A stretch of 64,000 bases of DNA, taken from NCBI GenBank assembly GCA_030679255.1, contig JAUXTO010000019.1, positions 1,699 to 65,698 of the forward strand, given 5' to 3'. This document shows, one piece after another, positions 14,203-57,921 of the stretch. Within the stretch, counting starts at the first letter, position 1. Every line of letters begins with the position of its first letter. A program made the translations under genes and the position numbers. This DNA comes from Candidatus Gottesmanbacteria bacterium. GTDB lineage: Bacteria > Patescibacteriota > Microgenomatia > UBA10105 > UBA927. The notes beneath the pieces were generated by a model. That model was not told the origin of the DNA. It did no database searches and saw only the letters and a list, made by a program, of their open reading frames with translations.

Positions 14203-15756
14203 TTACTTTCGTATGAGTAATCCCCCTATCGTAGGGCTAGGCAGAAAGTGGGCAGCAATATAGGCTTGATCTACGGGCAAAAGCGTCGTCACGCGTTTCA
14301 CTCCCCCTTCAAAAATATACTTCGTGTTTGTTTTTTGTAGCGCTTCAATAAGCGCGGGCAGGGGGCGGGACAAGTACGGTGCTGATTGCCCAAAGGGCGT
14401 ACAGCAGACCACGTACGGATGCTTATAGTAGAGGGTTTCTCCGGTCAGATCAAGGATGTATTCTGTGGTGGGGATCGTTTTGTAAAGCATCGTCAATTGT
14501 TTGATCGTATCGGCATTGGTCCAACCGCGTTTGGGACTATTAACCGCCACAAAAACCTGCATGAGCCGGATCGAACCGAGGATAAACAGTGCTAAAAAAA
14601 CTCCGGTCGGGAGGAGATTAGCATGGTTTTTCGATAGCTCCACACTTCTGCGCCAAAGCATATCCACCGCATCGGCCGCGTAAAACGCGATGAATACAAC
14701 GATGGGGATGAGGTACTGCGTGTGTTTAAGCGGGACGATCTGGACGTAAAAAATGACATAAACGAAAAACGTTGAGGCGATCAAAAACTCTGACCAAGAC
14801 CTTCCTGGAGTAACGAGCCGGTAAAGTCCGACGAAAATAGCGGTAAGCCACATGGCGTGATTGGTGACCAGTCCCGCGTTCCATCCTGCCGTCCCATAGA
14901 ACGTGACGTTGGGATAGAAAAACAAATCCGGCATCATGATGAAGGTTTGACTGATTTTGTTGGCCTCAAGACCAAGCTTCGTGAGTGAGTATATTACCTG
15001 ATCAATATTGCCAAGGGTCAGCGTCCAGAGGGCAAATATAGATATAGGTAAAAACATTCCGGCAAGAAGATGCGCGAGCCCTTTGAAAGATTCCCGGAAT
15101 TCTAACTTCTTCCCCGCCTGCCGGACGGACAGGAATTCCGGGAATCGGATAGCACGAAGCAACTCTATCCCCACCGCCACCCCCACCTGCGGCAGAGTTT
15201 TGGGAAGGATGAGCAGGGATATGCCATAGAAAAAACCAGCGACCATCCCGCAAGACACTCTCTTGCAGCCTCGCAAGAGCATGTCTTGCGAGGCTAAGAC
15301 GTGAAAAACCATTCCGAGCATCGCGAACAAGACGGCCAAAGTATCCGGCCGGATTTCCAGGAATTTATCAAACGGCATGGGAAGAAATGCAAGGATCACG
15401 CCGGCCACGATCGCAGTCCACGACCGACGCATGAGCCAAAAGAGAAGCATCGTCACCCCGACCAATAAGACAAATATACCAAATTGAACTATTCTCGCCG
15501 CAAAAATTGGCGCGATCCCGCCTCCGAAGGCAAAAAGCGGCATGAGAAAAAGATGAAAACCCGGCGGAAAGAAAAAAAGGAAATCCACATAGGGCCGGCG
15601 GCCGGAAAACATCTGAAACGCCCACGACAAATGCGCAAATTCATCGACATCAAAATAGCGTGTCATGCCAAGCTGGAAGTGCCAATAAAGAAGAATAGAC
15701 AATAAACAAAAAGCAATAAACGAGAGAATAACTGAAATGAACTGACGTACATTCAT
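14203..15756 (-). CDS. GT-C fold membrane glycosyltransferase (ArnT/PMT-like). Start trimmed to an ATG overlapping the upstream stop (ATGA).
   Basis: FDVDEFAHL DE motif near the N-terminus, many TM segments. Paralog of 51263..53122. Carries an in-frame palindrome (ASQDMLLRG). Confidence 0.55.
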   Translation of the reverse strand: MNVRQFISVILSFIAFCLLSILLYWHFQLGMTRYFDVDEFAHLSWAFQMFSGRRPYVDFLFFFPPGFHLFLMPLFAFGGGIAPIFAARIVQFGIFVLLVGVTMLLFWLMRRSWTAIVAGVILAFLPMPFDKFLEIRPDTLAVLFAMLGMVFHVLASQDMLLRGCKRVSCGMVAGFFYGISLLILPKTLPQVGVAVGIELLRAIRFPEFLSVRQAGKKLEFRESFKGLAHLLAGMFLPISIFALWTLTLGNIDQVIYSLTKLGLEANKISQTFIMMPDLFFYPNVTFYGTAGWNAGLVTNHAMWLTAIFVGLYRLVTPGRSWSEFLIASTFFVYVIFYVQIVPLKHTQYLIPIVVFIAFYAADAVDMLWRRSVELSKNHANLLPTGVFLALFILGSIRLMQVFVAVNSPKRGWTNADTIKQLTMLYKTIPTTEYILDLTGETLYYKHPYVVCCTPFGQSAPYLSRPLPALIEALQKTNTKYIFEGGVKRVTTLLPVDQAYIAAHFLPSPTIGGLLIRK

Positions 15757-16439
15757 AAGAAAAATCGTATCATGTCGACGATTGTTTGAACGACGGTACG
15801 CCAACTGTTGCCTCCACCAACTTCATTATCGGAGCGTGCACGGTGAGCGATGGGAATTTCTGTGACCGAAAAGCCCAACCGTTTTGTCCGGATGACGAGC
15901 TCTGCATCGACGAACGCGGAAGAAGATGACAGATGCAGAGAGGTCAGAACAGACCGGCGAAGGAGACGTACCGAATTAACATCATGGAGTGTGACACCGA
16001 ACAACCATCGGAGCAATGTGTTATAAATCCACGAGGAAAAAAGTCTGTTAGTCGGATCGTGGCGTTTGACCCGCCAGCCCAAAATCATATCATTGTTTCC
16101 AATGTGCGGTATCAATTTTTGCACTTCCTTCGCCCCGATTTGATAATCCCCGGGGATCGTAAAGAGCCACTCATATTGGCCTGCAAAATACAGTTCCTTT
16201 ATCGTCCTGCCATACCCCTGATTCGTCCGATGGGTGATGACACGGATATTTTTATATTTCTTCATGAGATTGACAAGGCCAGGCCCTGTCCTATCGTGGG
16301 ATCCGTCATCCGTGACGATTATTTCAAATTTCTTTGCTACCCGCCGGCCCACCGCAACGGCTTCCGCAACAACTTTTTCTATCGTCGCTTCATCGTTATA
16401 CGCCGGGATGAGAAGGGAAAGAGAAGAAAGCTTGATCAT
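15753..16439 (-). CDS. GT2 polyprenyl-phosphate sugar synthase-like (DPM1/GtrB type)
   Basis: LLIPAYNDEATIEKVV...IIVTDDGSHDRT...HRTNQGYGRT. Start trimmed to ATG 16439. Confidence 0.65.
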   Translation of the reverse strand: MIKLSSLSLLIPAYNDEATIEKVVAEAVAVGRRVAKKFEIIVTDDGSHDRTGPGLVNLMKKYKNIRVITHRTNQGYGRTIKELYFAGQYEWLFTIPGDYQIGAKEVQKLIPHIGNNDMILGWRVKRHDPTNRLFSSWIYNTLLRWLFGVTLHDVNSVRLLRRSVLTSLHLSSSSAFVDAELVIRTKRLGFSVTEIPIAHRARSDNEVGGGNSWRTVVQTIVDMIRFFL

Positions 16440-16441
16440 AG

Positions 16442-19759: not shown

Positions 19760-21472
19760 ATGGAATGGATGATAGTTTTAATAGTTTCCGCGGGCTTAAC
19801 ACTTATCAATAGCGCGCATGTCATCATCCAGTGGACCCTCAATAAACCCGGGGAAACATTTACCGGCATTGCCCACTCATTCGCCGATTATTTTCTCTAC
19901 GTGGGAGCGATGGCCCAGGGAGCCGCAGGACGGTGGATTTGGATGGAGAATCTCTTCACTAATGAGCCGACAAACCTAACGTGGTACTACTGGTTTTACG
20001 TAAGCCTTGGCCACATCGGTAGTTGGGGTCGTCTCTCCCCGTTTGCCACCTACAACGTGAGCCTCTTTCTTTTCGTTATCGCACTTTGCCTCGTCTGGTA
20101 TAAGCTCACGAAACTTCTCTATCCCACAAATACCTTCCTCCGGCTGACCACCTGGCTCCTAATCCTCACATCGACGAATTTTATTAGCTTCGCAAGGCCT
20201 GGCCTTGCGAAGCTAGGTATATTGGGTTTTTCTCAAATGGAACTTCTTGGTCAATTTTGGTTCTCGCCTGCTCCGGTGTTTAGTCGGCTCGGCGGGGTCC
20301 CCTACCATGTAGTGCAGTCCATCTTGTTTATCCTCCTTGCAATCACTTTTTCCCATCTCCTTGCCTCGAAATCAATTACTCGGGATTATAGTGGGTCACA
20401 TGGTAACATGTTAGCATGGTTACAAAATAAAAAATTACGCTCTTTTCTTTCATTGGTCATTCTGGCTGCCATCGCAGCCAGTGCCAATCCTGTCCAAATG
20501 CTCGTATTTGGCGTGGCGGCGCTTATCACCACAGCGGTCATGACCAATGCCGCGATCTACAAAAAAATTGCGCTGCTGGTGTGTCTTTTCATTGCCGCAG
20601 GGGCCGGAGCATGGTTAACGCAGATGGAATTTTCCCGCCAGGCAGTATTTCTCGCGGCCCGCAGTTGGGAACTCGTGCAACAGGTCCGTAACAACCCATC
20701 GATCCTTATTCTTTCCATAGGTCCAGTACTACTCTTTATCCCATTCGGCATGCAAAAAGTATTCAAAGAAAAAAATCCATTACACATCCTCTTTGTGATC
20801 TGGGGACTCCTCTCTTTTGCATTATTTCTCTCTCCCATCCCCCGACTTCTTGCCCTCTCTCCGGTCCGGTTCCTCCACCCGGTGCCCTACGCGGCGGCGC
20901 TCGCCATCCTCGGGGTGGAAGGATTGGTGCAGTTAGCCGGCTTGCTTCATCGGAGATTAAAAAATAAAGTAACACTCACCACTATCCGCGTGGCATTACT
21001 ACTTGCCTATCTCATCCTCACCATTCCCGCGATCTCCCGCCAATTTATCGACCGCATCACCCCGGCCCGTAATCCGCAACTCCTCATGGACACCATCTAC
21101 AACCACGTCCCCGCCCCCATCGCCGACGCCCTCACCTGGCTCAGAGTGACAGGGCCTGGCCCTGTCATAGAGCGTCCGGTCGTGCTTGTTGATCCGGCTA
21201 TCCCCATAGAAGTGCTCGTGCCAGTATTCACCGGAAAAATCTCCTTCTCCGGCCACCCCATCCATACGCTCTACCCCGATGTGAAAGAAGCCAAACGGCA
21301 GAAGTTTTTCGGAGGGAAAATGAGCGAGACTGAAGCGAATCAATTCTTAAAAGATCACCGGATAGGATATATTATTTCCAAACCGATATCCCCCACTCTG
21401 GCGGACTATTCAAAATTTGTTACAATGGTTTTTCAAAACGATGTAATCGCGATATTCAAAACAATGAAATGA
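19760..21472 (+). CDS. Polytopic membrane protein; family X paralog 2. Contains an in-frame REP palindrome.
   Basis: FADYFLYVGAMAQGAAGRW...TNEP. REP encodes SFARPGLAKL. Confidence 0.45.
   Translation: MEWMIVLIVSAGLTLINSAHVIIQWTLNKPGETFTGIAHSFADYFLYVGAMAQGAAGRWIWMENLFTNEPTNLTWYYWFYVSLGHIGSWGRLSPFATYNVSLFLFVIALCLVWYKLTKLLYPTNTFLRLTTWLLILTSTNFISFARPGLAKLGILGFSQMELLGQFWFSPAPVFSRLGGVPYHVVQSILFILLAITFSHLLASKSITRDYSGSHGNMLAWLQNKKLRSFLSLVILAAIAASANPVQMLVFGVAALITTAVMTNAAIYKKIALLVCLFIAAGAGAWLTQMEFSRQAVFLAARSWELVQQVRNNPSILILSIGPVLLFIPFGMQKVFKEKNPLHILFVIWGLLSFALFLSPIPRLLALSPVRFLHPVPYAAALAILGVEGLVQLAGLLHRRLKNKVTLTTIRVALLLAYLILTIPAISRQFIDRITPARNPQLLMDTIYNHVPAPIADALTWLRVTGPGPVIERPVVLVDPAIPIEVLVPVFTGKISFSGHPIHTLYPDVKEAKRQKFFGGKMSETEANQFLKDHRIGYIISKPISPTLADYSKFVTMVFQNDVIAIFKTMK
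20186..20214. repeat. REP-A, 29-nt perfect palindrome AGCTTCGCAAGGCC-T-GGCCTTGCGAAGCT, inside a CDS
   Basis: Exact palindrome seen directly. Confidence 0.9.
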
Positions 21473-26451: not shown

Positions 26452-26561
26452 GTCATCCCCGCGCTCCTTGTTGTCATTCCCGCCCGCCGCGACGGGTAAA
26501 CTCCGGCGGGAATCCATTCCTCATTTTAACACTGGATCCTCGGGTCAAGCCCGAGGATGAC
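26452..26561. repeat. MITE-C, a bipartite hairpin element (GTCATYCC...GGRATGAC). It provides the C-terminus and stop codon of the 26474 gene.
   Basis: gtcattcccgcc..ggcgggaatcc .. ggatcctcgggtcaagcccgaggatgac. Confidence 0.7.
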
Positions 26562-35839: not shown

Positions 35840-35896
35840 TCGTCTTCATGTGTTCGTCTTCATTTCGACAAAATACGACCAATAATCCAAAAAGTT

Positions 35897-35925
35897 AGCT
35901 TCGCAAGGCCAGGCCTTGCGAAGCT
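35897..35925. repeat. REP-A palindrome (centre A), 26 nt upstream of the RAYT gene
   Basis: agcttcgcaaggccaggccttgcgaagct. Confidence 0.9.
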
Positions 35926-35950
35926 AGAAATTCTATGATAGGTTGATGGT

Positions 35951-38920: not shown

Positions 38921-40026
38921 GATTTTGTCTGGATAGTTCCGAGTACTGCAAGAAGAGCCTCATAGCTTGCCCCGCGTACATCGATCCATTTCGCGTTGAT
39001 CGACTGGGCAAGACCATTGTCATCATCGCTGTTGCCCAAGACGACCACCTTGTCAAATTCAGTCATTTTTTTACCAAGCGAAAAGAGCGCGTCGGTCACC
39101 ATGGCCGGAGAAGGTTTACGCTTCGTCGTCTTTTTGACAAAGGATGTTTTCCAGGCGATCTCAGGGTGGGATCCTACAAACTCGGCATCCACATCCGGAC
39201 AATACTGCCAAGAGTCGATTTTAATTCCCTGTTTTTTGAGTAAATCATTGACTGCCTCATTAACCTCATCCACTTTTTTCTCATCAAAGTATCCCCGCGC
39301 GACACCGGATTGATTGCTGACGACTATCTTCGTTGTTTTATATTTCGTCTGCATGTAGGAGAGGAAGCTCACAACCGGCATGTTAAGGGTAATTTTTTTC
39401 TTCCAATCTTCTGTTCGGCCTAAAAAATCGTCGTTTGTGATGAGCGTTCCGTCGCGGTCAAGAACAACCAATAATCGTTTTGAGGGGATCTTCTGTTGGA
39501 TATAATCGATGACTTCCGTCGTCGAAAGCTTCGGGTCATCGGTATAGGCCATTGTGCCGCCAACGGCTTTTATTGCTTCACGCTCACTGGTAATCCCCGG
39601 CGTTTGTTTGCCGATAAAATCCGGACCTTTCATATACATCGAGGGCTTGAGCGCGTTGATCACGTCTACGCCGAGTTTAACGTCCGTAACAACAACGTAA
39701 TCTACCATCCGCAGATTGGCAATCATGTACGCGCGTAATGTATCAGGAAATATCGGCCGCCCCGCGCCTTTCCGGCCCTCTACAAACCGGTCGCTCGTCA
39801 CAGAAACGACAAGTACGTCGCAGAGTTTTTTAGCCGACTCAAAGTGTTTGACGTGGCCGGGATGCAGAAGATCAAATCCCCCGTGGCAAAGCCCGACCGT
39901 TTTCCCCTCCTGACGAAGCCGACGGATGACCGATGCTGCGGCGGCAAGCGAAATAATTTTCCCGGACGTATATATTTTTGTCGATGAGATCTGCATCATA
40001 AATTTATCATGGTACGCCCTGATCAT
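38917..40026 (-). CDS. Bifunctional nucleotidyltransferase (HldE/RfaE domain II-like) fused to a HAD phosphatase (GmhB-like)
   Basis: GLCHGGFDLLHPGHVKHF (HxGH cytidylyl/adenylyltransferase) plus VVLDRDGTLI (HAD motif I). Start trimmed to an ATG overlapping the stop of YfhO B. Confidence 0.6.
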   Translation of the reverse strand: MIRAYHDKFMMQISSTKIYTSGKIISLAAAASVIRRLRQEGKTVGLCHGGFDLLHPGHVKHFESAKKLCDVLVVSVTSDRFVEGRKGAGRPIFPDTLRAYMIANLRMVDYVVVTDVKLGVDVINALKPSMYMKGPDFIGKQTPGITSEREAIKAVGGTMAYTDDPKLSTTEVIDYIQQKIPSKRLLVVLDRDGTLITNDDFLGRTEDWKKKITLNMPVVSFLSYMQTKYKTTKIVVSNQSGVARGYFDEKKVDEVNEAVNDLLKKQGIKIDSWQYCPDVDAEFVGSHPEIAWKTSFVKKTTKRKPSPAMVTDALFSLGKKMTEFDKVVVLGNSDDDNGLAQSINAKWIDVRGASYEALLAVLGTIQTKS

Positions 40027-43916: not shown

Positions 43917-44637
43917 TGGGGATGGCCGCGCCCGTGATATAGCCGGCTTGGGGGCTTGCCAGATAGACGGCGAGACTGGCAATTTCTTCCGGCTGGGCTT
44001 TGCGTCCCAGCGGAATTTGTTTGATCATTGTTTCCATATAAGAAGTTGGAACGTCTTTAAGAATTTCTGTATCGACAAGTCCCGGGCAAATGGCATTGAC
44101 GGTAATGCCAAAGCGCGCCACTTCTTTGGCTAACGACTTTGTAAATCCAATAAGGGCCGCTTTGGACGCACTATAGTTCGTTTGCCCGAAATCTCCCCGC
44201 TGCCCGCTTATAGAAGAAAGGAAAATAATCCTCCCCCACCCGGAGGCAATCATGCCGGGAAGTAATTGTTTGGTGACAAAGAATGCACCATACACATTGG
44301 TTTTCATGACGATATCCCAATCCTCTCCACTCATCTTGGTAAATAAAACATTACGGACGATCCCCGCGTTGTTGACGAGAATATCGATATGACCGAATTG
44401 GGAAATAACTTTTGCGCATCCGCGGGCCACTGCGTTGGGATCGGTGATGTCAAAATACACCGCGTTGCTTTTGGGTGATAAACGTTTTATCTGCCTAAGG
44501 ACATCCTTGCTCTCCGGCGACGGATGTGATGCATGGGTGACAACGATATTCCCCTCCCGAGCAAATCCCAACGCTATCGCCCGCCCAATGCCACGGGACG
44601 AGCCGGTGACGAACACAATTTTTTCTTTTGTTTTCAT
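43897..44637 (-). CDS. SDR-family oxidoreductase (FabG-like)
   Basis: IVFVTGSSRGIGRAIA...NNAG...YSASKAA. Confidence 0.7.
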   Translation of the reverse strand: MKTKEKIVFVTGSSRGIGRAIALGFAREGNIVVTHASHPSPESKDVLRQIKRLSPKSNAVYFDITDPNAVARGCAKVISQFGHIDILVNNAGIVRNVLFTKMSGEDWDIVMKTNVYGAFFVTKQLLPGMIASGWGRIIFLSSISGQRGDFGQTNYSASKAALIGFTKSLAKEVARFGITVNAICPGLVDTEILKDVPTSYMETMIKQIPLGRKAQPEEIASLAVYLASPQAGYITGAAIPINGGWM

Positions 44638-46775
44638 AGAGAGGTGCGGATATCATAAGACTTCTTCCATAAAAATACCATGATACCCGCGGTAATGAAC
44701 GAGATGACTCCCCCGATGACGAAAATCCTGGGATTGTACCGATAGATGACGGTGTGGTTTCCTGCGGGGACAAAAAGTGCTCGGAATGCATTGTTTGCCT
44801 TGATTATCTCTACCTTTTGTTCATCGATAAATCCTTCCCATCCGGGGTAATATACTTCGGAACTCATGAGTGTTGCCCCAGTGGTGGACTGGGTTGACAG
44901 GATGATTTCGTTGGGTGAATATTTTACGATATTCACCTTCCCCTCTTTATGATCGGCAAAATAGAACCTTGGGAAGACCGTGGTATTTTCATACAATCTA
45001 TAATCACGAGCCACATCTTCGCGGATGAGACGGAATCTCGGGTCTTTCGTACCAAAAAGTGGATCGTACGCGCGCGGGTGGAGAATATATTTGATGTTGA
45101 GGAAATCCGTGGCTTTGGAAAATATATTCAAGTACGGAATCTGCACATCATGATCGAGAATACTCGGCGTCGTCTTGCCATTGGACGCATCAATAAATGC
45201 ATAATACGGTTTTAGTATCATCGTGTCGTAGCCGGTCGCATTAAAAACACCGTACTGCATCCCCGCGTCGAAATCAAAACTATCCCGGGGTGGTGCCCAC
45301 GCGCCGAAGTTAGTAAGAACTCTATACGGATCGCGGTTTTGTTTAAGAATCTTAATAAGGTCAACGTCGTGGCGCGTCTCGGGAACGGGCTTGAGGGTGA
45401 TGAAGTGATGGGAGTAAAAAATCATTTCCGCCGCGATGAGTACTCCCGCGATTCTCACAATGTGCTGAGAGCGGATTGCGTGAATGGACATCCCAATAAG
45501 TCCGCTGAGCCCAAAGGCAACGAGGATGAGATGGCGCGGAGGAATACGAAGGAATTTATACGTGGGGACAAGCTTCCAGAGGATATATTGCAAGTCAATG
45601 GGGGCGTTGGGACCCATGGATACCCAGAGACCAAAGAAGGCGATACAACCGAACGCGAGTATCATAGGTGACTTAGGTATCTTAAGTACCCTCGGTAACC
45701 GAAACAATAAAACTGCCAGAACAACGAGCAACCCCACTCGTCCCACAAAAAACGCATGTTCGGCAAAATTGGGTGGCGGGCCGCTATAGGTGAGTTGATC
45801 CCCAAAGAAAAATGGGTTAAAAAATTGCCCTAAACTCCTCCACTCAAACGATCCGTATGCAATCCAGGAATACGGAAGAGCGTATGTCCTTATGGTTTGA
45901 CGAAAAAACTCCTGTTGAGGGAGAAGGACCACCGCAAAAAGTCCGATAGCCAGAAGCACGCTCAAGGCGATACTCGCAATGACGATCACTATCCTCTTCA
46001 TACTTGCCCGTTGAGAAATAAACGTGATCGCTGCCATGATCCCCACTGCCTCGAGCGTCAACATAGCCATCGTCTGATACCCGGCAAACAACTGCATGGC
46101 CAAGACTACCGCAGCGATAACAATCCTCCGCCGCTCCTGGTATTTTTGTGTGTATTCTTCCAGTTTTGAATTTTTAGTTTTGAGTTTTGAGATTGCGCCA
46201 AAGGCGCATACCACCCACGGCATCCACGAGGCCGCAGCAATCACATCCACATGCCCGGCCCAGATGCGGGCGGCAAAGAAGCCGGAGAGACCGAAAACGA
46301 GACCGGCGATCCACGGACCAATAGGATGGAGGACATAGGACATAGGACATAAGATAGAGAAATTGCTCTTTTCATTGGATAATTTGATTATTGGATTATT
46401 GGATAATTCCCTGCGAAGCAGGGTATACATCCCCGTCATCGCCCACAGGAGGTGTAGGGCGATATGCCACGAATACGCAATATTGAGGGGCAAAAGTACG
46501 AAAAGCCAATTCGGTGGATACAACATGTTGACGATCGGATGGGCTATAAACGGAGTCCCTGCGAAGTTGTAGGGATTCCACCACGGCCAGACGCCTTGAG
46601 CCAAAAAGTTGTTGAAAAATTGCCGGTAAAAATAATACGCCCGGTGGATATCGTCGCCCCAGATCATCTCCGTGGCTCCAGGAATGAGCGCGCGGCCAAA
46701 CACCACCGCGACCGCCAGCGCGTAGAACGCGATCGGCACACCATACGGCCACACCCTACGGAAAAACGATCTCAT
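44634..46775 (-). CDS. YfhO-family membrane glycosyltransferase, paralog C. Start trimmed to an ATG overlapping the methyltransferase stop.
   Basis: WWNPYNFAGTPF; AASWMPWVV; C-terminal YPGWEGFIDEQ..AFRALFVPAGNHTVIYRY. Confidence 0.65.
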   Translation of the reverse strand: MRSFFRRVWPYGVPIAFYALAVAVVFGRALIPGATEMIWGDDIHRAYYFYRQFFNNFLAQGVWPWWNPYNFAGTPFIAHPIVNMLYPPNWLFVLLPLNIAYSWHIALHLLWAMTGMYTLLRRELSNNPIIKLSNEKSNFSILCPMSYVLHPIGPWIAGLVFGLSGFFAARIWAGHVDVIAAASWMPWVVCAFGAISKLKTKNSKLEEYTQKYQERRRIVIAAVVLAMQLFAGYQTMAMLTLEAVGIMAAITFISQRASMKRIVIVIASIALSVLLAIGLFAVVLLPQQEFFRQTIRTYALPYSWIAYGSFEWRSLGQFFNPFFFGDQLTYSGPPPNFAEHAFFVGRVGLLVVLAVLLFRLPRVLKIPKSPMILAFGCIAFFGLWVSMGPNAPIDLQYILWKLVPTYKFLRIPPRHLILVAFGLSGLIGMSIHAIRSQHIVRIAGVLIAAEMIFYSHHFITLKPVPETRHDVDLIKILKQNRDPYRVLTNFGAWAPPRDSFDFDAGMQYGVFNATGYDTMILKPYYAFIDASNGKTTPSILDHDVQIPYLNIFSKATDFLNIKYILHPRAYDPLFGTKDPRFRLIREDVARDYRLYENTTVFPRFYFADHKEGKVNIVKYSPNEIILSTQSTTGATLMSSEVYYPGWEGFIDEQKVEIIKANNAFRALFVPAGNHTVIYRYNPRIFVIGGVISFITAGIMVFLWKKSYDIRTSL

Positions 46776-47527
46776 ACGCCTACCTTCGTCGCGTACACCA
46801 CGAGGGTTGCGCCTCTCGGGAACGGACACCAAAGAAAAAACAACTGTTCCAACCGTAACAAATAATACAACATAGCATTGACCAAAGGATGTGGGACACG
46901 CAAATACATGGGGACGACCGGGACAGACGTCTGGCGCTTGGTGTACATCCTGAAAAGGATATACCACGGCAGGGAAAACACGTTCCAATAATTCATATAG
47001 TGCACATGAAATCCGGCAGTACGGAGTTTTTCCCTGAGCTCACCCGGCTCATATCTCCTCTTATGCCCGCCAATGTCATCCAGACTACTCCAAAGCCACT
47101 TCCCTGCTGGTACGGTCAAGAGAAACGTACCGTCTTTTTCCAACATGTCCCAACACCGTCGTAAAAATAAACGGTCGCGCGTTTGATGTTCAAGGACATC
47201 AAATGCCCCGACCCCGCTAAATTTTTGTTTGCTCTGAAATGTATAGAGGGACTGACGGACAAACCGGGCAGCAGGACAACTGTTTTTTGCATAGGTGAGC
47301 GCTGCCTCATTGACATCCAAGCCCACGACACGATATCCCAGATTGTCTAACACGCGCAGCATGATGCCGGTCCCACATCCTACTTCAAGGAATGACCGGC
47401 GATCATTTTTTGGAATGAACCGTTCAATAAGTCCAGCAAGCATGGAGCCACGCGCACGGAACCAGAAATGCTCGTTCTCGACTTGGGCTACCTCCCTATA
47501 GTGCGATATATGATACGTTGCGGACAT
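46772..47527 (-). CDS. Class I SAM-dependent methyltransferase
   Basis: FLEVGCGTGIMLRVL...VVGLDVNE. Confidence 0.65.
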   Translation of the reverse strand: MSATYHISHYREVAQVENEHFWFRARGSMLAGLIERFIPKNDRRSFLEVGCGTGIMLRVLDNLGYRVVGLDVNEAALTYAKNSCPAARFVRQSLYTFQSKQKFSGVGAFDVLEHQTRDRLFLRRCWDMLEKDGTFLLTVPAGKWLWSSLDDIGGHKRRYEPGELREKLRTAGFHVHYMNYWNVFSLPWYILFRMYTKRQTSVPVVPMYLRVPHPLVNAMLYYLLRLEQLFFLWCPFPRGATLVVYATKVGV

Positions 47528-47541: not shown

Positions 47542-49548
47542 TTATAGCGATCGGTATACCGTCACAAAGGAATTCTTATACACCTCTGTGAGGAACGGAT
47601 AGATTTTGACAAGACCCCCTACTCCCCTTGCCTCGCCGCCCCGCTTCGCCGAATCGAGGCGAGCAGGCGGGCCATCCTCTTTCTCCTGCGGACCGAAAAA
47701 TATCCAATGAAGATTTTCGCGGGTCATCCATGCTTTGGCGTCATCCGGTTTCATCCGGCCGGAAAAAAACTCTTTGACTTTTACTTCTTTTGCTTCAGCG
47801 TCGACCGTGTTGGCGTGCCCCACATAGACCGTATTGCCGGCATAGACCGGGATATAGTTGCCCGCGGTCGTCTCAGAAAGAATAATTGTTTTGCGGCTGG
47901 GCGTCGCGTCCTGGATATAACGGATAGCGGCAATGAAATCTTTCAGCGGATACATGACGTAGCTCCCCGTCGGCACGAGCGGGTAAGTCGCCCGCATCTT
48001 GTGATCGATGAAGTCCTTTTGCCAGAGGAATGAGGAAGACATCACCCCGAAACCCACACCTATCAATATCGTAATCAATATACACACCATTAAGCGCAGC
48101 ATACTCCTGAGGAAAATTCCAAATGATCCAAACATTTGGTATTTGGTGCTTGATGCTTGGTGCTTGTTTGGTATTTGGTGCTTGATGCTTGGTGCTTGTT
48201 GATAATTCCAATGAAATGCAAACCAACAGAGATACGCCGTCAGGACCCCCAGCGGGACGTGCGGGATCATTTCGCTAAAGCGAAGGGGCGACTGGGCCGG
48301 GATAAATTTGAAAATAAAAAGGAGAAGCGCCCACGCGAGGACCCAAGCCGCGGCAGGCCACATCCTGCGGTCTCTCATTTTTAGCGCGACCAGAAGTCCG
48401 ATGATCCCCAAGGGAAGAATGGGCCCGACTGCCTTCAAGTATTCGATGTAATCAAACGGCAGGGGCTTCACGATGTCAAACTCGACGAGCCGCTTCCATG
48501 GATAAAACGAGGTCATGAGGGAGAGATAGATGAGAGAAGGAAGACCCAAAATCAAGACTACCACCCTTCCTGTCATCCTCGGGCTTGACCCGAGGATCCA
48601 GTTTCTTAAAAGCGAGATTCCAGCTCGGAGGCCGGAACGACAAAAATATGCCCAGCTTCGCAAGGCCTGGCCTTGCGAAGCTAACAATTTTAGATTATAT
48701 GATAGTTCAAGGCATGTTAGGGCGCCAATGGTGACAATAATAAACAATAAGCCCGGAGGGAATATGATGCCTTCGGCGAATGCGATCACTCCGAGAAATA
48801 CCCAATTGCCCGGCTTTTTCATGGTCGCCTCATCGGAGAGGGCCATAATCAAAAATATAATCAGTGCTTGCCCCACGAGAAGATGCGGGATGAAGGTGAT
48901 GCGCTGCAGACTGTCCATGACGGACCACCACGGCATGTAGCCGCCGAAACGCCAGTTGGTGATATTGGCAATCGTTGCGGGGACGACTTGATTGTTAATG
49001 ACAGCAACAATCTTGGGCCAGGTGGAGGCGGTGACAGCAAGGAGAAAGGCAAGAATCGGGACGTAGGACGTAGGATCTAGGACGTAGGGAAAAAATGCAA
49101 GACGTTCCGATTTATTCTTATGTCCTATGTCATCACTCATACGTCCTTGTTCAAACGTTTTCTTACAAAACTGGACGATCATGACGAGGAGAAATCCTCC
49201 GAAGACGATGCGCGCGACGTGGTAGACGTCCGAAGCCCGATGCCAGGGCACACGAACCCACGCCCCAAGCCACCCCAGGAAAAGATAAAAAATGTGGATG
49301 AATGATCCCTGATGCGGCTCGCTCGTGTATTGCTCGCGGACCACGACATTTCCCTCTATCCCCTGCCGGATACGGGAGAGATAAAAATTAAAGTCCGTCG
49401 GAAAATTATGGATGAGTTCGAATTCACGGTTAGATTGCAGACGGTTGCTATGGGCAATCTCATACGCCGCCGGGGCGAGGGAGCCAAGAAGAAACAAAAT
49501 AATAAGGAAACCAAATACTTTATCTCTCATGTCCCCCATTCTACGCAA
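47542..49548 (-). CDS. Polytopic membrane protein, family X paralog 3. Contains REP-A, MITE-C, Elem-F and tandem-repeat insertions in-frame.
   Basis: HNFPTDFNFYLSRIRQGIEGN..TSEP motif. Inserted peptides LLASQGQALRSW, RSGLRAGISLLRNWILGSSPRMTG. Confidence 0.45.
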   Translation of the reverse strand: MRRMGDMRDKVFGFLIILFLLGSLAPAAYEIAHSNRLQSNREFELIHNFPTDFNFYLSRIRQGIEGNVVVREQYTSEPHQGSFIHIFYLFLGWLGAWVRVPWHRASDVYHVARIVFGGFLLVMIVQFCKKTFEQGRMSDDIGHKNKSERLAFFPYVLDPTSYVPILAFLLAVTASTWPKIVAVINNQVVPATIANITNWRFGGYMPWWSVMDSLQRITFIPHLLVGQALIIFLIMALSDEATMKKPGNWVFLGVIAFAEGIIFPPGLLFIIVTIGALTCLELSYNLKLLASQGQALRSWAYFCRSGLRAGISLLRNWILGSSPRMTGRVVVLILGLPSLIYLSLMTSFYPWKRLVEFDIVKPLPFDYIEYLKAVGPILPLGIIGLLVALKMRDRRMWPAAAWVLAWALLLFIFKFIPAQSPLRFSEMIPHVPLGVLTAYLCWFAFHWNYQQAPSIKHQIPNKHQASSTKYQMFGSFGIFLRSMLRLMVCILITILIGVGFGVMSSSFLWQKDFIDHKMRATYPLVPTGSYVMYPLKDFIAAIRYIQDATPSRKTIILSETTAGNYIPVYAGNTVYVGHANTVDAEAKEVKVKEFFSGRMKPDDAKAWMTRENLHWIFFGPQEKEDGPPARLDSAKRGGEARGVGGLVKIYPFLTEVYKNSFVTVYRSL
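48572..48638. repeat. MITE-C element (second hairpin degenerate) in-frame
   Basis: gtcatcctcgggcttgacccgaggatcc agtttcttaaaagcgag attccagctcggagg. Confidence 0.65.
48654..48682. repeat. REP-A palindrome in-frame
   Basis: Exact palindrome. Confidence 0.9.
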
Positions 49549-49562: not shown

Positions 49563-51215
49563 TCATTGGAGAGAATACGCTTGAAAATCCTTATTACTCA
49601 ATCGCTTCACAACACCACTACGTTGTGGTGGAATCCAAGCGGACGGGGCGAGGATCCAACGGACGTTATGGGCAGAAAGAATGCGGTTGGCGACGACTGG
49701 ATCGCGGGTGGTAAAAAATTCATTGATGGCGGCGCGTTTGGCGCCTACGTCCTTGGTAAACATGACGTGGCCGGCGACCACTCTTCTACCAGTAAATGAA
49801 GGGGTCATCGTGCTGATCTCGTAGGGGGCCATCACGACATCTTCGGGCTGACTGTTTTGTGATAGATAAGAAAATGCATCCATGAGCTCCTTTGGTATAT
49901 AGACTTGAATATTATTCCGGTTCTCCGCCACATACCCCGCGTGTTCGCGGAAACTGGCAATCAAACCGACGGAAAAATAAAGAAGTAACACCGATATCAA
50001 CACAAATTTCATAAGGCCACCCCTTGTCCTTCGACTTCGCTCAGGATAAACAGCCAAGGGAGTGGCCTTAAACGCAGTTACATCACCCAGCCTTAAAAGG
50101 TGAGACCTTTTAAGGCTAAATATCCAGACGGCGGTACCGATACCGAGGGGGATGAATTGATAGCCGCCGAGGAACCGCTCGGGGGTGACCGGCACGAAAG
50201 GACCTATTATATAAAGCATAATCCAGCTACTCGCGGCCCAGGCAAGGAGGAGACTTCCCACCCGCCCCAAACGCCAGATGGTGGGAATTGCAAGCAAAAA
50301 CAATACGAGCGTTGGTCCGAAACTTACCGCGTACTCAACCGGATTTACTTTATAGTCAAGCGTCTGCTCCCACAAAAGATAGCTCGTCCACGGAAATATG
50401 TTCATCTGGAGGTAACGATGATAAAGCATAACAAATCCGGCGGTCACAACCAAAATTATGACCATTATAATTTCAAAGCCTGGCTTTGATTTGTTTCGGA
50501 GCGTCAGGACGGTATATATAAGAAGGGTGGGTATGAAGGTGACGTAGACCACGGGGTTGGTAAATCCCATCGCCGCGACAAGGCCGACGATCGTAAGGAG
50601 GGAAACGAATTTTCTAAATTGACCCGGCGATTCTCCATTTATTATTAGAAGAAATACGGCAAGCATCCCCACTTTACTCCATAAATGATGCGGCACAAAT
50701 GACCACCGGAAGATGGGATCAAGCTCCGTCCATGCGTGGGGGAGACTTGCAACAATTGGGCCGTTACTCCCCCATCCCCAGAAATACGTACCAAAGAGGA
50801 CAAAGCAGAATGCGACAATCCTTTTTATAATAGATTGTGGAAATGTTTTCCGGATCAATTGATAGACCAATACCATGAGCGCCAATCCTCCGAAAATCCG
50901 CGCTCCCGTATACGCTATAGGTAAAGAGATATCAAGAAGACGCGCTATATGCCCGAGGGTGAGAAGAAATATGCTCACGACCATCCGGGGATAGATTTCC
51001 GGTGTCATCCTGCTGGTGGCGACCCACCACCCATCCCATCCCTGCCGCATGATATCCAAATATATGTAATAATCTTCAACAAAATTATGAACCAACGGAT
51101 AGACAGTCCCCGGAGGGGTATTCCATAGATAGAGAATCGTTTGGGAAACGCTCAAAAGAGCCGCCAATAAAATAAGAAGAATAATGATGACTCGATCCCA
51201 TGAAACTCTTGGCAT
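49563..51215 (-). CDS. Polytopic membrane protein, family X paralog 4. Contains an Elem-D plus Elem-E pair in-frame.
   Basis: LVHNFVEDYYIYLDIMRQGWDGW..TPE motif. Confidence 0.45.
   Translation of the reverse strand: MPRVSWDRVIIILLILLAALLSVSQTILYLWNTPPGTVYPLVHNFVEDYYIYLDIMRQGWDGWWVATSRMTPEIYPRMVVSIFLLTLGHIARLLDISLPIAYTGARIFGGLALMVLVYQLIRKTFPQSIIKRIVAFCFVLFGTYFWGWGSNGPIVASLPHAWTELDPIFRWSFVPHHLWSKVGMLAVFLLIINGESPGQFRKFVSLLTIVGLVAAMGFTNPVVYVTFIPTLLIYTVLTLRNKSKPGFEIIMVIILVVTAGFVMLYHRYLQMNIFPWTSYLLWEQTLDYKVNPVEYAVSFGPTLVLFLLAIPTIWRLGRVGSLLLAWAASSWIMLYIIGPFVPVTPERFLGGYQFIPLGIGTAVWIFSLKRSHLLRLGDVTAFKATPLAVYPERSRRTRGGLMKFVLISVLLLYFSVGLIASFREHAGYVAENRNNIQVYIPKELMDAFSYLSQNSQPEDVVMAPYEISTMTPSFTGRRVVAGHVMFTKDVGAKRAAINEFFTTRDPVVANRILSAHNVRWILAPSAWIPPQRSGVVKRLSNKDFQAYSLQ
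50005..50117. repeat. Elem-D (AAGGCCACCCCTTG..CAAGGGAGTGGCCTT hairpin) plus Elem-E (29-nt palindrome AGCCTTAAAAGGT-GAG-ACCTTTTAAGGCT)
   Basis: The second copy pair lies at 51763..51790 and 51890..51957, in the divergently transcribed neighbouring gene. Confidence 0.75.
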
Positions 51216-51262: not shown

Positions 51263-53122
51263 ATGACAAATCTACAAATAAATCCGCGAAAAATTGTTCA
51301 GGCAGTACTCTTTTTGACTATACTCATTGTCCTTCTCATGCGGCTGCAGCTCGCTCTCACCCGGGCATTTGATCCGGATGAGTTTGCCTACCTCCATTGG
51401 ACCTGGCTCTCCCTCAATGGATATCTTCCGTACCGCGACTTTTTCTTTTATATTCTGCCGGGATTTCCCTGGGCACTCTCCCCCATCCTGTGGCTGACCG
51501 GTGACTCAATAAACTTTCTGATCGCAAGCCGGATCTTTATGTTTCTCATCTACGGATTATGTGCCGGAGTCGTGTATAAAATGGCACAGTCAATAGCGAC
51601 TCTATCTCAACACCAGAATACCCACACACCCGGGGTGTGGGCGCCGATCCTTGCCACCCTCATCTTTCTCACCTTCCCCGTCACCATAGACAAGACCATC
51701 GATATCCGGCCGGACATGGTGATGTTGCTCTTCTATTTTGCAAGTGCCTTGATTATTTTTCAGCCTCAAAAGGTGAGACCTTTTAAGGCTACATTATTGA
51801 TGTCGGGGATGTTATTTGGCGCGAGCATTTTCGTATTTCCGAAGATCATTTTTGGATTGCCGGCACTTCTTTACCTCTTGTTTTCTCAAAATTTCATAAG
51901 GCCACCCCTTGCCCTTCGACTTCGCTCAGGGCTAGCCGCCAAGGGAGTGGCCTTTAGAACTCTCCTTCCATGGGTCCTTGGCGCAGGGCTTATGGGGTTA
52001 GGATTCCTCGGTTACTTGTGGGTAAACAATCTCATCCCCCAGGCAGTCACGAGTCTCACGAGCGACGCGCTTGCCGTGACTTCGGGCAAACATGGATTTT
52101 CTCCCCTTCTCCTATTCACTCCCTATCCACTTATCTACCTCTCACGAGGTGGTGTAAGTCTGCCGTGGGCGGTCAATACCATTATATGGATGTTGGGGGT
52201 GGTCGGATTGGTGATACTTTTCAAAATCAACCGTCAGTGGGCTATCTTTTGGAGTCTTTTTACTGCAGGAAATATTCTATTCGTGCTCCTCTTCCCCGTG
52301 CCATACGTCCAATATTTATTGCCGCTGTCTGTGGCTGCGAGTGTGTTGGCGGCGATTGCAATCCAGTATTTAGGTCATAGTATATTGGGGTTAGGAAAAA
52401 ATACTATTCCCTATATACTCGTTCCAGTCCTCCTCCTACCATCCTTCTTCCTCCAATACCGGGAGCGCGTGGCGCCGGGGGCCGGAAACAGCGAACAACT
52501 CCAGGTGATCCGCGATGTATTGCGCGTGACTAAACCCAATGAATCCGTCTATGACATGGTGGGCTCCTACGTCTTCCGGCCGGACGGCTACTACATTTGC
52601 TGCCATCCGTATGCGGAGTTCGTGCAAAAACTAGGCACAAGCTTGCCCGCCGAAGTCCCGCCGGGCGGGACGAAGGAGGGGCCAGGCCTCAATCTGACAA
52701 AATCATTAATCAAACACCAGACCAAATTTCTCGTCATGGACAGGGTGGGATTTGTGTTTTGGCAGAGTCTCGAGCCGGATAAAATATTTATGCTGACCAA
52801 TTATTTGCCGATGGGAAATCCCGCAGCCCCCGGTACTCCATTAAGTAAACTCTATTCCTTGGGTCAGACATTCAGATGTATAAATGGCGCGTGTGTACAA
52901 TACGATATGGACGGAAAACCTGCTGCTCCCCGATCGACCAATACATTCACATTAATCGCAGGAGAAAAGTATTCGGCAGCCATACAGCCTGAATTTGCAA
53001 CCGCTATGATTGACGGCAGCGCCGTTAAAAACGGTCAGACTGTAGAGCTGGCAGCCGGCCCCCACGGATTTACTACCGATCAAACCGTCCAGGAGTTCAG
53101 AATACAGCTCAGGAGAAATTAG
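51263..53122 (+). CDS. GT-C fold membrane glycosyltransferase (ArnT/PMT-like), paralog of 14203..15756. Carries Elem-D' and Elem-E' in-frame.
   Basis: FDPDEFAYLHW...LPYRDFFFYILPGF versus FDVDEFAHLSW...RPYVDFLFFFPPGF. Confidence 0.55.
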   Translation: MTNLQINPRKIVQAVLFLTILIVLLMRLQLALTRAFDPDEFAYLHWTWLSLNGYLPYRDFFFYILPGFPWALSPILWLTGDSINFLIASRIFMFLIYGLCAGVVYKMAQSIATLSQHQNTHTPGVWAPILATLIFLTFPVTIDKTIDIRPDMVMLLFYFASALIIFQPQKVRPFKATLLMSGMLFGASIFVFPKIIFGLPALLYLLFSQNFIRPPLALRLRSGLAAKGVAFRTLLPWVLGAGLMGLGFLGYLWVNNLIPQAVTSLTSDALAVTSGKHGFSPLLLFTPYPLIYLSRGGVSLPWAVNTIIWMLGVVGLVILFKINRQWAIFWSLFTAGNILFVLLFPVPYVQYLLPLSVAASVLAAIAIQYLGHSILGLGKNTIPYILVPVLLLPSFFLQYRERVAPGAGNSEQLQVIRDVLRVTKPNESVYDMVGSYVFRPDGYYICCHPYAEFVQKLGTSLPAEVPPGGTKEGPGLNLTKSLIKHQTKFLVMDRVGFVFWQSLEPDKIFMLTNYLPMGNPAAPGTPLSKLYSLGQTFRCINGACVQYDMDGKPAAPRSTNTFTLIAGEKYSAAIQPEFATAMIDGSAVKNGQTVELAAGPHGFTTDQTVQEFRIQLRRN

Positions 53123-55163: not shown

Positions 55164-55167
55164 CTTG

Positions 55168-55920: not shown

Positions 55921-56004
55921 ATTTTTCTCCTATACGGATAACAATGGTGAGTATAATACTGATTAAATCAAAAAAATGCAAATTTTTCTGCTACAATAAT
56001 TTTT

Positions 56005-57921
56005 ATGAAGTTTCCGAAGTGGTTTTGGGTGGGAATACTGATTGCGCTTTTTGTGCGTCTCGCGCTCATCCCCAATCCTGGCTTTGAGGCGGATGTGTCG
56101 TTTTGGAAGGCGTGGGGACTGGCGGTCGTTGACAAAGGTGTCATTGAGGGCCTGAAGGTGAGCAACAGTAACTACCCTACCCCATTTATGTATACGCTCG
56201 GCGTCATGGTATGGGTGTATAAACTTTTTGCCGATCCCCATAACTTTAATGAATTTTGGAATAACAGCAATCTTCTCTTCTTGACCATCTCGAAAATGCT
56301 GCCGATCATGGCAGATTTTGGAATTGCCGGAATCATTCTTTGGATAAGCACCAAATACCAAGCATCAAGCATCAAACAAGCACCAAATTCCAAGCATCAA
56401 ACGTTTGGAACATTGGGATTTAGAATTTTGAATTTGTTTGGAATTTGGAATTTGGAATTTGGAGCTTCTCGTGTCGGTTTTTTATTTGCCCTTGTCTACC
56501 TCCTCTCCCCCATCTCCCTCATCGACGGGGCGTGGTGGGGGCAAGTCGATAGCGTCGGGGTATTTATATTTCTTGCGGCTGTGGTCGCCGTCCTCAAAAG
56601 GTGGCCTGTGCTTGCCGGAGTGATCTACATGGTGGGCGTCATGACCAAGCTCCAAAATATGATCTACGGCCCGGTGTTTTTTCTGTTCGTTTGGCAGTCG
56701 CTTGGATACCAGGGATTGGTCCGCGCTATAGCCGGCAGCACACTCGGTTTTTTCGGCCTGAATATCGAATTTTTCCTCTCGCGAAACATGGCCAGGGTGA
56801 TGGCAAGCCTCACCGAAAACTATGACTACTTCCCTCTCATGAGCCTGAACGCCTACAACCTTTGGTGGATATTCTCCGGAGCCAAAGGCATGGCGATGAG
56901 TGATAAATTTTTGAGCGTGGGGATCATGAATGCGAAGACGGTAGGTCTGGTATTGTTTTCGGGGGTGTATTTGTTTGCGGTACTCCGGCAGACTTTTACA
57001 AGGCACTTCCTTGCAGCTTCGCAAGACATGCTCTTGCGAGGATTCCTCGAATCCCTGATCCTCGTCAATGGGGCATTTTTTCTTTTCCAAACACAGTCGC
57101 ATGACCGGTATGCGTTTCCGCTGTCCGTGTTTCTTCTGCTGTGGGCACCGTTTTTCATTTCGCAAGACATGCTCTTGCGAGGCTACAAGAGCATGTCTTA
57201 TGGAATCAATATCCGTCTTTTTGCAATGTTCTATACACTTTTCACCATCTTTTATTTCTACAATCTCCATACAGCGCTCATCGTCAATTATCCTAATAAC
57301 GGAATCCCGGGGCTCACGCTTCTTACTCAGCCTTTTTTCACGATCATGACCTCCGTCGTGTTGTTGGGATTATTCGGCGTCATTCTTTGGCATTTTGCGC
57401 GACAATCCAGGCTCGCATTCTTTGTCTCCTGTCTCGTGTCTCTTGCCGCCTTGACTGCCCTCAACCTCCCCCTCATCACGAAAAAACCAGTATCGCTTAC
57501 TAAACTCACTCCCTACGTCGCCGAAGTAGGCTACGGAAAGCGGCAAACCGATATGCCCGTCAATGCATTTTTAGGCTACTCCAAACAATCATATCTCTCG
57601 GTGCAGTATGCGTTTTATCGGAGCGGTCTGGGCCTCCACTCACCGAGCTTTCTCAATTATGATATCGGCGGGCACTTCAAAACATTGATCACCGATTACG
57701 GGATTGACACAGAAGCAGGAGGAAAAGGATCGGCGGTCTTTGAAGTGTACGGCGATGATAGACTGTTATGGCGGTCGGAGAAAATCGGACGGTATGAAAA
57801 TCCGCGGCATGCGGAAGTGAACGTGACGGGAGTGCGGAAACTGGGACTCATCACGACGGATGCCGGGGACGGCCGTGACGATGATCATGTGGATTGGCTC
57901 CGGCCGATGCTGTGGCCATAA
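56005..57921 (+). CDS. GT-C-like polytopic membrane protein with two in-frame Pal-B palindromes and an in-frame simple-repeat insert
   Basis: ASQDMLLRG and ISQDMLLRG peptides encoded by CTCGCAAGACATGCTCTTGCGAGG; insert STKYQASSIKQAPNSKHQ..FGIWNLEFG. Confidence 0.45.
   Translation: MKFPKWFWVGILIALFVRLALIPNPGFEADVSFWKAWGLAVVDKGVIEGLKVSNSNYPTPFMYTLGVMVWVYKLFADPHNFNEFWNNSNLLFLTISKMLPIMADFGIAGIILWISTKYQASSIKQAPNSKHQTFGTLGFRILNLFGIWNLEFGASRVGFLFALVYLLSPISLIDGAWWGQVDSVGVFIFLAAVVAVLKRWPVLAGVIYMVGVMTKLQNMIYGPVFFLFVWQSLGYQGLVRAIAGSTLGFFGLNIEFFLSRNMARVMASLTENYDYFPLMSLNAYNLWWIFSGAKGMAMSDKFLSVGIMNAKTVGLVLFSGVYLFAVLRQTFTRHFLAASQDMLLRGFLESLILVNGAFFLFQTQSHDRYAFPLSVFLLLWAPFFISQDMLLRGYKSMSYGINIRLFAMFYTLFTIFYFYNLHTALIVNYPNNGIPGLTLLTQPFFTIMTSVVLLGLFGVILWHFARQSRLAFFVSCLVSLAALTALNLPLITKKPVSLTKLTPYVAEVGYGKRQTDMPVNAFLGYSKQSYLSVQYAFYRSGLGLHSPSFLNYDIGGHFKTLITDYGIDTEAGGKGSAVFEVYGDDRLLWRSEKIGRYENPRHAEVNVTGVRKLGLITTDAGDGRDDDHVDWLRPMLWP
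57015..57041. repeat. Pal-B palindrome (REP-A-related, different centre). Second copy at 57159..57182; third copy at 15269..15293.
   Basis: agcttcgcaagacatgctcttgcgagg. Confidence 0.8.

Follow-up and report, generated by a model that had tools for sequence, protein, structure and literature searches.

Hairpin repeats within genes of a Candidatus Gottesmanbacteria locus: a probable REP family associated with a RAYT-like transposase

The locus and its two palindromic repeats

We analysed a 64-kb stretch of DNA (hereafter the window, always at its full length) from a groundwater metagenome-assembled genome (MAG) of Candidatus Gottesmanbacteria, a lineage of the candidate phyla radiation (CPR/Patescibacteria), in which a gene for a tyrosine transposase resembling the RAYTs (REP-associated tyrosine transposases; REP, repetitive extragenic palindrome) lies among genes that carry two short palindromic repeats, here called REP-A and Pal-B. 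The host proteins, i.e. the products of the repeat-bearing genes, are 100% identical to NCBI entries of a Gottesmanbacteria MAG and are GT-C-type membrane glycosyltransferases, with the YfhO assignments supported by Pfam; the product of open reading frame (ORF) 56005..57921 is a membrane protein with a C-terminal NPCBM domain (Pfam). Three YfhO paralogues lie on one strand at 36686..38920 (YfhO A), 40023..42296 (YfhO B) and 44634..46988, the latter two being 38–41% identical to the first, and this part of the window (36686-46988) belongs to an extensive cluster that comprises GT-C, GT2 and sugar-epimerase genes. The transposase gene and the repeat copies are as follows:

35951..36667 (+): gene for a RAYT-like Y1/HUH tyrosine transposase, 238 aa; Pfam Y1_Tnp, 36.6 bits (cut-off 23)
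35896..35926: REP-A, intergenic, 26 nt upstream of the RAYT start; same layout in the related loci L056, L062, L006, L015, L030 and L031
36457..36485: REP-A in the RAYT ORF, read as LASQGLALRSW, aa 169-179
36695..36725: REP-A at the 3' end of YfhO A (36686..38920, −), SFARPGLAKL, aa 733-742; doubles as the downstream flank of the RAYT gene
20185..20215: REP-A in ORF 19760..21472 (+), a membrane glycosyltransferase of GT-C fold, SFARPGLAKL, aa 143-152
40962..40992: REP-A in YfhO B (40023..42296, −), SFARPGLAKL, aa 436-445
48654..48682: REP-A in ORF 47542..49548 (−), LASQGQALRSW, aa 289-299; the site also holds REP-A in L014 and L012
63170..63198: degenerate REP-A with 3 mismatches, intergenic
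15267..15295 (−): Pal-B, 12-bp stem and 5-nt loop, in ORF 14203..15804 (−), LASQDMLLRGC (ASQDMLLRG being aa 171-179), followed by a degenerate second unit
57015..57043 (+): Pal-B, site 1 of ORF 56005..57921, ASQDMLLRG, aa 338-346
57159..57199 (+): Pal-B with an inverted second unit, site 2 of ORF 56005..57921, a doublet with a 14-bp outer stem, ISQDMLLRG, aa 385-393

REP-A is a perfect palindrome of 31–33 nt with the structure YT-AGCTTCGCAAGGCC-W-GGCCTTGCGAAGCT-AR, and Pal-B is the 24-mer CTCGCAAGACATGCTCTTGCGAGG, which has the same stem core (TCGCAAG/CTTGCGA) and a different loop. A search of the window for this core, TCGCAAG-N7-CTTGCGA, returned 10 matches at ≤1 mismatch, where chance would give 0.01, and the number did not rise at ≤2 mismatches (0.15 expected); the matches correspond to seven REP-A and three Pal-B copies. 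Exact matches to AGCTTCGCAAGGCC-N-GGCCTTGCGAAGCT are found at 20186, 35897, 36457, 36696, 40963 and 48654 (0 expected), whereas Pal-B is exact at 15269-15292 (−) and has one mismatch each at 57018 and 57159 (0 expected). Eight of the 10 copies lie within long intact ORFs and the other two (35896 and 63170) are intergenic; the density of REP-A in the window is about 1 per 9 kb. An initial annotation of this DNA had counted 11 copies, one more than the core search with ≤2 mismatches recovers, while its figure of eight inside ORFs stands. The peptides and frames that it listed were also recovered, except that the second copy in 56005..57921 begins ISQ rather than ASQ, and the first host, which it placed at 14203..15756, extends as the longest ORF to 15804.

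An alignment of 82 non-redundant REP-A copies from the window and its relatives revealed that conservation stops at 33 nt (Y-T, 29 nt, A-R); no conserved element longer than this was found in the 82 copies, the flanks being merely A-rich upstream and T-rich downstream. The central base is A or T in all 82, and both ends carry the mirrored tag YTAG/CTAR. Folded as single-stranded DNA, the 33-nt REP-A reaches −17.5 kcal/mol (z = −7.9) and Pal-B −10.6 kcal/mol, both far beyond shuffled controls, and no Rfam family was matched anywhere in the window. Within the GGCC-W-GGCC core of REP-A lie CCWGG and two GGCC motifs, sequences commonly recognised by methyltransferases or restriction enzymes, and a link to DNA modification is conceivable. 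With respect to coding, the frame that yields SFARPGLAKL is open, the frame that yields LASQG(L/Q)ALRS closes at the element's terminal TAA (internal copies have TGG, TAY or TGY there), and the third frame opens with the element's TAG; because REP-A is palindromic, these properties are alike on both strands.

In-frame insertions and recurrent slots

Orthologues with an empty site were identified for four slots, namely the 19760 host, both Pal-B sites of ORF 56005..57921 and the tail of YfhO A. In the 19760 host, SFARPGLAKL is present in the orthologues P0002 and P0003, degenerate in P0004, P0005 and P0010, and replaced by a gap in P0006, P0009 and P0013-17; the DNA of the empty P0006 reads AAC TTC TAT TGG GAC where the window holds the full hairpin. 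At sites 1 and 2 of ORF 56005..57921, several orthologues are shorter and lack the hairpin peptide, and at site 1 the difference of 8 aa equals the 24-nt Pal-B. A solved structure offers a similar comparison in a relative, since the LepA/EF4 protein of L052 carries REP-A as 9 extra residues in a turn relative to T. thermophilus 5imq_B. With such insert-free orthologues or paralogues to compare, the REP-A and Pal-B copies behave as insertions that would add roughly 8–11 residues to their host proteins. Empty-site orthologues at four slots bear out the initial annotation's view of them as inserted elements, as well as its comparison with Rickettsia palindromic elements (RPEs), in that these are in-frame palindromic inserts in genes and are absent from orthologues.

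The tail of YfhO A illustrates how such an insert alters a C-terminus. The syntenic orthologue on contig JACREO010000038, which lacks the element, ends ...VFLLII*, and the window protein ends ...IIFSFARPGLAKLAI*, a clean 9-residue addition three codons ahead of the apparent native stop. The palindrome makes up 10 of the last 12 codons, and the final two codons and the TAG follow outside it, the stop lying 6 nt beyond its end. Because the element-free syntenic orthologue ends in this manner, the stop codon of YfhO A looks native, and the earlier proposal that the palindrome supplies the last 10 codons together with the stop had to be given up. In the relative H41-bin149_1, a 1-nt indel shifts the element to another frame, and its terminal TAA ends the protein; in YfhO A the element is accordingly read in one frame in the window and in another in this relative. 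The L056 orthologue terminates ...LASQGLALRS*.

We further considered where the inserts fall within their hosts. The AlphaFold (AF2) model of the 19760 host has a mean predicted local distance difference test (pLDDT) score of 85.7 and a predicted template modelling (pTM) score of 0.86, and its fold matches the GT-C glycosyltransferases AftA, AglB, PglB and STT3 with probability 1.0. The only segments with pLDDT below 50, aa 145-160 and 167-171, are the REP peptide and its immediate surroundings, and the model predicts a disordered loop beside a transmembrane helix. In the weak model of the 56005 host (mean pLDDT 66.6), there are only dips at aa 334-338 and 389-395, next to the inserts, and in a hydropathy scan the remaining inserts lay between transmembrane-like segments or at their edges. 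A loop position is evident in the 19760 host; for the other hosts the indications are hydropathy and, for the 56005 host, the dips in its weak model.

Beyond the window, REP-A was scanned for in one genome per species, and exact matches turned up in 63 stretches; these come from about 20 MAGs, with few exceptions Gottesmanbacteria or other Patescibacteria. The window and these 63 loci together hold 83 unique exact copies, with a mismatch spectrum peaked at zero (83 exact copies against 5, 1 and 4 with one, two and three mismatches), and MAG H41-bin149_1 has at least 13 REP-A copies. Within this census, 38 of the 83 copies are internal to ORFs of ≥120 aa, 3 supply a C-terminus, 3 lie near an N-terminus and 39 fall in no long ORF. 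A stricter filter, which required an ORF of ≥200 aa and ≥40 codons to either side of the copy, retained 32 of the 83, distributed over the frames as 20 : 11 : 1, so that the intragenic share of REP-A is 39–46%. Positions drawn at random from the same DNA are internal in 80% of cases, i.e. REP-A under-uses genes only about 1.7-fold. Pfam searches of 34 hosts in relatives identified LepA, transketolase, PfkB kinase, RpiB, RmlD/epimerases and GT1/GT4 glycosyltransferases, and also an HhH-GPD glycosylase, cytidylyltransferase, and PMT_2 and YfhO membrane proteins. Since soluble housekeeping enzymes are among these hosts, the bias toward membrane glycosyltransferases reflects the locus and not the element; the initial remark that the hosts are nearly all of this type is accurate for the window and does not extend to the lineage.

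The contig JBBTWJ010000011 of MAG H41-bin149_1 is syntenic with the window and carries REP-A at all six corresponding sites, which suggests long-term vertical persistence in spite of sequence divergence. The 28 stem bases are alike at every one of the six orthologous sites (168/168), compared with 78–84% identity in the well-aligned coding flanks. The central base is flipped between T and A at 4 of the 6 sites, a pattern that would fit inversion of the hairpin loop. The peptide cannot be what is constrained, given that REP-A is read in two frames and has intergenic copies as well; the constraint is one on the nucleic acid.

Perfect hairpins with stems of ≥9 bp are generally abundant in the window, with 21–22 found versus 2.5 expected, and 18 of them lie in ORFs, in agreement with the 86% coding density. 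They include at least three further families, with in-ORF sites at 26536-26558, 48575-48597, 50089-50117, 38221-38240 and 413-443. One further in-ORF hairpin reads ATTCCCGCGTACGCGGGAAT, and two families recur in a relative:

48575..48597, with a second copy at 26536-26558: in-ORF hairpin family ATCCTCGGG-N5-CCCGAGGAT; JACREO010000038 has 3 copies, including the occupant of the YfhO B slot
50089..50117: REP-X, AGCCTTAAAAGGT-N3-ACCTTTTAAGGCT, in ORF 49563..51215; fills the 19760-host slot in JACREO010000038

Together with REP-A, Pal-B and several of these short hairpins form one wider population. Contig JACREO010000038 (GCA_016218205.1) is likewise syntenic with the window, encodes host proteins 64–79% identical and is available over 53.6 kb. 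No REP-A was found in these 53.6 kb, and almost every slot of the window is occupied there by another hairpin:

19760 host: window REP-A; JACREO010000038 TAGCCTTAAAAGGT-CTC-ACCTTTTAAGGCTA (REP-X)
YfhO B: window REP-A; JACREO010000038 ATCCTCGGG-CTTGA-CCCGAGGAT
47542 host: window REP-A; JACREO010000038 a Pal-B-like hairpin
14203 host: window Pal-B; JACREO010000038 two tandem Pal-B-like units
56005 host, site 1: window Pal-B; JACREO010000038 a 36-nt palindrome
56005 host, site 2: window Pal-B doublet; JACREO010000038 an unrelated longer insert with another hairpin
YfhO A tail: window REP-A; JACREO010000038 empty

The exchange of hairpins at a slot extends to other orthologues. In the 19760 slot, P0010 has the REP-A stem with another loop, and P0007 has a different palindrome that starts with TTAG and ends with CTAG. 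A search of metagenome contigs for the P0007 palindrome gave 5 matches, all of which look like ordinary terminators (a GC hairpin and a T-run) in unrelated contigs and are without the TTAG tag. In the YfhO B slot, P0084, P0087 and P0081 hold hairpins of the same stem with other loops. The look-alike peptides of this slot (SFARPPLAK, SFARRVLAK and SLARRRLAR) are best read as diverged hairpins and not as an ancestral protein motif, because the DNA at these positions consists of hairpins of the same stem family.

Several additional repeats were observed. Tandem (TTTGACA)n heptamers lie in frame at 13179-13208 (ORF 12962..14059), 38550-38579 (YfhO A) and 41697-41727 (YfhO B), where they encode SNVKCQMSNV-like segments; in the YfhO alignment this is a variable, gap-rich region with NVKCQ strings in several orthologues, and the arrays look like another class of in-frame repeat slot. 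The L052 LepA/EF4 gene (L052:2425-4464, −) has two more inserts of ~18 and ~21 residues, AHQRVSASTSDHDAMTHGRNDA and THQRVNASASDDDATTHGRSDA, which are similar to each other, are absent from solved EF4 structures and probably represent yet another in-frame repeat family. A 66-nt direct repeat with 91% identity (50004-50069 and 51889-51954) is located in the adjacent divergent ORFs 49563..51215 (−) and 51263..53122 (+), and a tandem array of 8–9-nt units (AAAGTCCGT / AAAGTCAAA) at 57921-57990 begins at the stop codon of ORF 56005..57921.

The transposase and the competing explanations

The HUH histidines H95/H97 (in NHFH) and the tyrosine Y155 (in RYIHRNP) of the window transposase are invariant across 28 homologues. 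REP-A flanks its gene on both sides, ending 26 nt before the ATG and starting again 29 nt past the stop, and the same two-sided flanking was found in L006, L015, L030, L031, L056 and L062 (seven genomes with the window), whose orthologous transposases share 55–84% identity; the coupling of the palindrome to a RAYT noted initially is thus reproduced in at least six relatives. In L048, a REP-A variant, AGCTTCACAAGGACAGGCCTTGTGAAGCT, with a compensatory G>A / C>T stem change is located at 1247-1275 and 2019-2047 and flanks a second, diverged RAYT copy (58% identical), which suggests that repeat and transposase may co-evolve. At the codon where the window transposase ORF carries its REP-A copy, L056, L062 and L024 hold an exact one, and L006, L030 and L059 one with a single mismatch; the copy sits in a hypervariable linker after YIHRNP, where the shortest homologues are about 10 residues shorter. 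The only Y1 transposase of JACREO010000038.1 (L076:21460-22300) was considered as a source of a cognate REP and rejected, as it is 35% identical to the window RAYT and is flanked by terminal inverted repeats (TIRs) of ~40 nt, GAGTTYCACCTCCGGTGTGT...GACACCTGTGG, rather than by REPs, the arrangement termed 'TIRYT' by Di Nocera et al. (PMC3733652).

From these sequence features, REP-A and the RAYT-like gene are filed here as a putative REP/RAYT system ('REPtron'). They share with such systems a short multi-copy palindrome, two-sided flanking of the transposase gene, and the HUH and tyrosine motifs, and they lack three other features, the GTAG (or CGTC) tag, a mainly extragenic location and a score above the curated family threshold. 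Taking the comparative evidence together, we consider it likely that REP-A is a REP family associated with the RAYT and that its copies within genes are in-frame insertions.

Several findings weigh against this interpretation. The sole NCBIfam match of the transposase, REP_Tyr_transpos (NF047646, equivalog), reaches 36.2 bits and stays under the cut-off of 80, and the classical GTAG tag is not recovered, as T (43) outweighs G (9) at position −3 of the 82-copy logo. Pal-B is not accompanied in the window by a transposase of its own, and no exact Pal-B was found in the 63 related loci or in JGI metagenome contigs; its distribution is known from near-variants in JACREO010000038. The net length gain over empty orthologues varies from +8 to +15 aa, and no target site or duplication can be derived from filled and empty orthologues that are 60–75% identical and whose loops contain further indels. 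Likewise, no filled/empty polymorphic pair was seen in close strains, and no mobility event was caught. The peptides are presumed protein segments on the strength of ORF integrity. Finally, the perfect conservation of the stems is not expected from insertion followed by decay alone and calls for selection, gene conversion or re-insertion.

By analogy with IS200/IS605-type enzymes, the transposase would move the hairpin as single-stranded DNA. The unit length would be a multiple of three (33 nt in REP-A, 24 nt in Pal-B) and two of the three frames would be free of stop codons, alike on both strands; an insertion into a permissive loop would therefore lengthen the protein rather than truncate it. 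As the genome is ~86% coding, many of the surviving copies would therefore lie within genes. Precise excision would preserve the target, and if few loops tolerate inserts, the same slots would come to hold different families across genomes; gene conversion could be an alternative route to such recurrent occupation. We put forward more tentatively that permissive loops are long-lived 'hairpin slots' in Gottesmanbacteria, and perhaps in the CPR, in which REP families are swapped by HUH-dependent excision and re-insertion or by gene conversion. Mobility would then take place largely in coding sequence and continually rewrite loops of 8–12 residues in many proteins, universal ones such as EF4 among them, and the transposase might regulate itself via its own copy. 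This broader proposal is speculative, and we would not be surprised to see it fail.

The principal competing explanation is that the hairpins are host-selected nucleic-acid elements (terminators or attenuators, mRNA-stability or pause signals, or protein-binding sites) that spread by recombination, the link to the RAYT being secondary. Perfect stems at six orthologous sites despite ~20% flank divergence would be expected of such elements, as would slots that are kept across genomes even where the hairpin family differs, and P0081 retains the stem via G-T (G-U) pairs on the sense strand. The A-rich upstream and T-rich downstream flanks of REP-A point the same way, and several copies fit a permissive terminator pattern (15-bp stem and T-rich tail), among them the in-gene copies at 40961-40993 and 48652-48684 (−) when read on the host sense strand. 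However, the terminator scan was poorly specific (22 sites versus 18 expected in the region), and a terminator inside lepA, an essential gene, would do harm. The hosts are functionally unrelated, their empty-site orthologues function without the hairpin, and the consistent flanking of the transposase gene in seven genomes is not accounted for. We thus regard host selection as an unlikely explanation, though the strongest of the alternatives.

A second alternative, which we hold to be clearly less probable still, is that the palindromes arose in place from quasi-palindromes that were perfected by hairpin-templated repair (template switching) and homogenised by gene conversion. It would explain the central T/A flip at 4 of 6 sites with perfect stems, the restriction of the centre to A or T in 82 copies, as predicted by loop inversion, and the short-form YfhO B orthologues that hold a hairpin without net length gain over distant homologues. 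Yet identical 29–33-nt sequences occur in dozens of unrelated genes and at intergenic sites in ~20 genomes, clear length gains are seen relative to empty sites, and the association with the transposase is left unexplained.

That REP-A serves as a DNA uptake signal is very improbable. Like the uptake signal sequences (USS) of Pasteurellaceae and the DNA uptake sequences (DUS) of Neisseria, it is found within genes in tolerated frames and is conserved between species, and both the exact sequence kept across many species-level genomes and the in-gene frame preference are in line with such a role. Known uptake signals occur at roughly 1 per kb. REP-A, in contrast, occurs only about once per 9 kb, is a perfect 33-nt palindrome, flanks a Y1 gene in seven genomes and has no copy in the 53.6 kb of the syntenic relative's contig. 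We reject the remaining view, which explains the shared peptides as protein motifs of ancestral or convergent origin or the junctions as assembly artefacts, since the look-alike peptides in YfhO B-slot orthologues that might favour a motif are same-stem hairpins in DNA, the element occurs in two frames and between genes with invariant synonymous positions, and MAGs assembled independently in different studies show these junctions again.

Relation to known palindromic repeats

REPs located wholly within ORFs of known proteins have been described in RAYT-bearing bacteria, where some supply stop codons and some lie in DNA-repair genes (Di Nocera et al. 2013, PMC3733652). The likeness to REP-A is close, as a single unit encodes ~10 aa, the RAYT genes are flanked and units at ORF ends supply the stop (here in L056), and the coupling of intragenic REPs to a RAYT is accordingly not a first (PMC3733652). 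The previously described REPs are mostly intergenic and carry a GTAG/CGTC tag, whereas REP-A is 39–46% intragenic, bears YTAG/CTAR at both ends of a perfect palindrome and belongs to a CPR lineage. Unlike in those systems, the RAYT ORF itself holds a copy, and different families occupy the same slots.

The REPIN/RAYT systems of Pseudomonas and enterobacteria (Nunvar 2010, PMC2817692; Bertels & Rainey 2011, PMC3116915) resemble the present one in a repeat-flanked transposase gene, a peaked 'master sequence' and persistence. Their repeats are extragenic, imperfect and GTAG-tagged (PMC2817692, PMC3116915), in contrast to the single perfect palindrome of REP-A with many copies in coding sequence. 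The Pal-B doublets of inverted units resemble REPINs. The window RAYT differs from the transposases of these systems in its low score, 36 bits where the curated family requires 80.

With IS200/IS605 elements (IS608, ISDra2), the system shares a Y1/HUH transposase and hairpins that flank its gene. IS200/IS605 elements move by single-stranded 'peel and paste' with precise excision and no target duplication; they move the whole gene-carrying unit and insert it beside a defined 4–5-nt target. Here, unlike in IS200/IS605, only the small hairpin appears to be dispersed.

We know of no transposase linked to RPEs. As summarised in later papers, RPEs are the classic case of in-frame repeats (Ogata et al. 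2000, via PMC10969869 and PMC3733652). In the features that those summaries report, the likeness is evident, with palindromes in frame in unrelated functional genes, tolerated as an extra peptide in a small reduced genome. By the same accounts RPEs are ~100–150 bp long and encode longer peptides, against 24–36 nt in Gottesmanbacteria, and the two are set apart by description, not by sequence.

Our literature searches returned nothing on REP/RAYT systems or in-frame palindromic repeats in CPR, Patescibacteria or Gottesmanbacteria. The distinctive features of the present case are its lineage, the very high intragenic share, the compact, GTAG-free perfect palindrome, the copy within the transposase ORF and the turnover of families in fixed slots. 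In-frame hairpins of this kind give rise to lineage-specific loops, variable C-termini and alignment gaps in CPR proteins that may be mistaken for functional differences or assembly errors. Perfect stems against ~20% flank divergence, together with the swapping of slots, point to concerted evolution of the repeats rather than simple insertion and decay. In comparison with RPEs, similar behaviour is here accompanied by an associated HUH transposase and a very compact element, which makes a link between hairpin transposition and protein-loop innovation testable.

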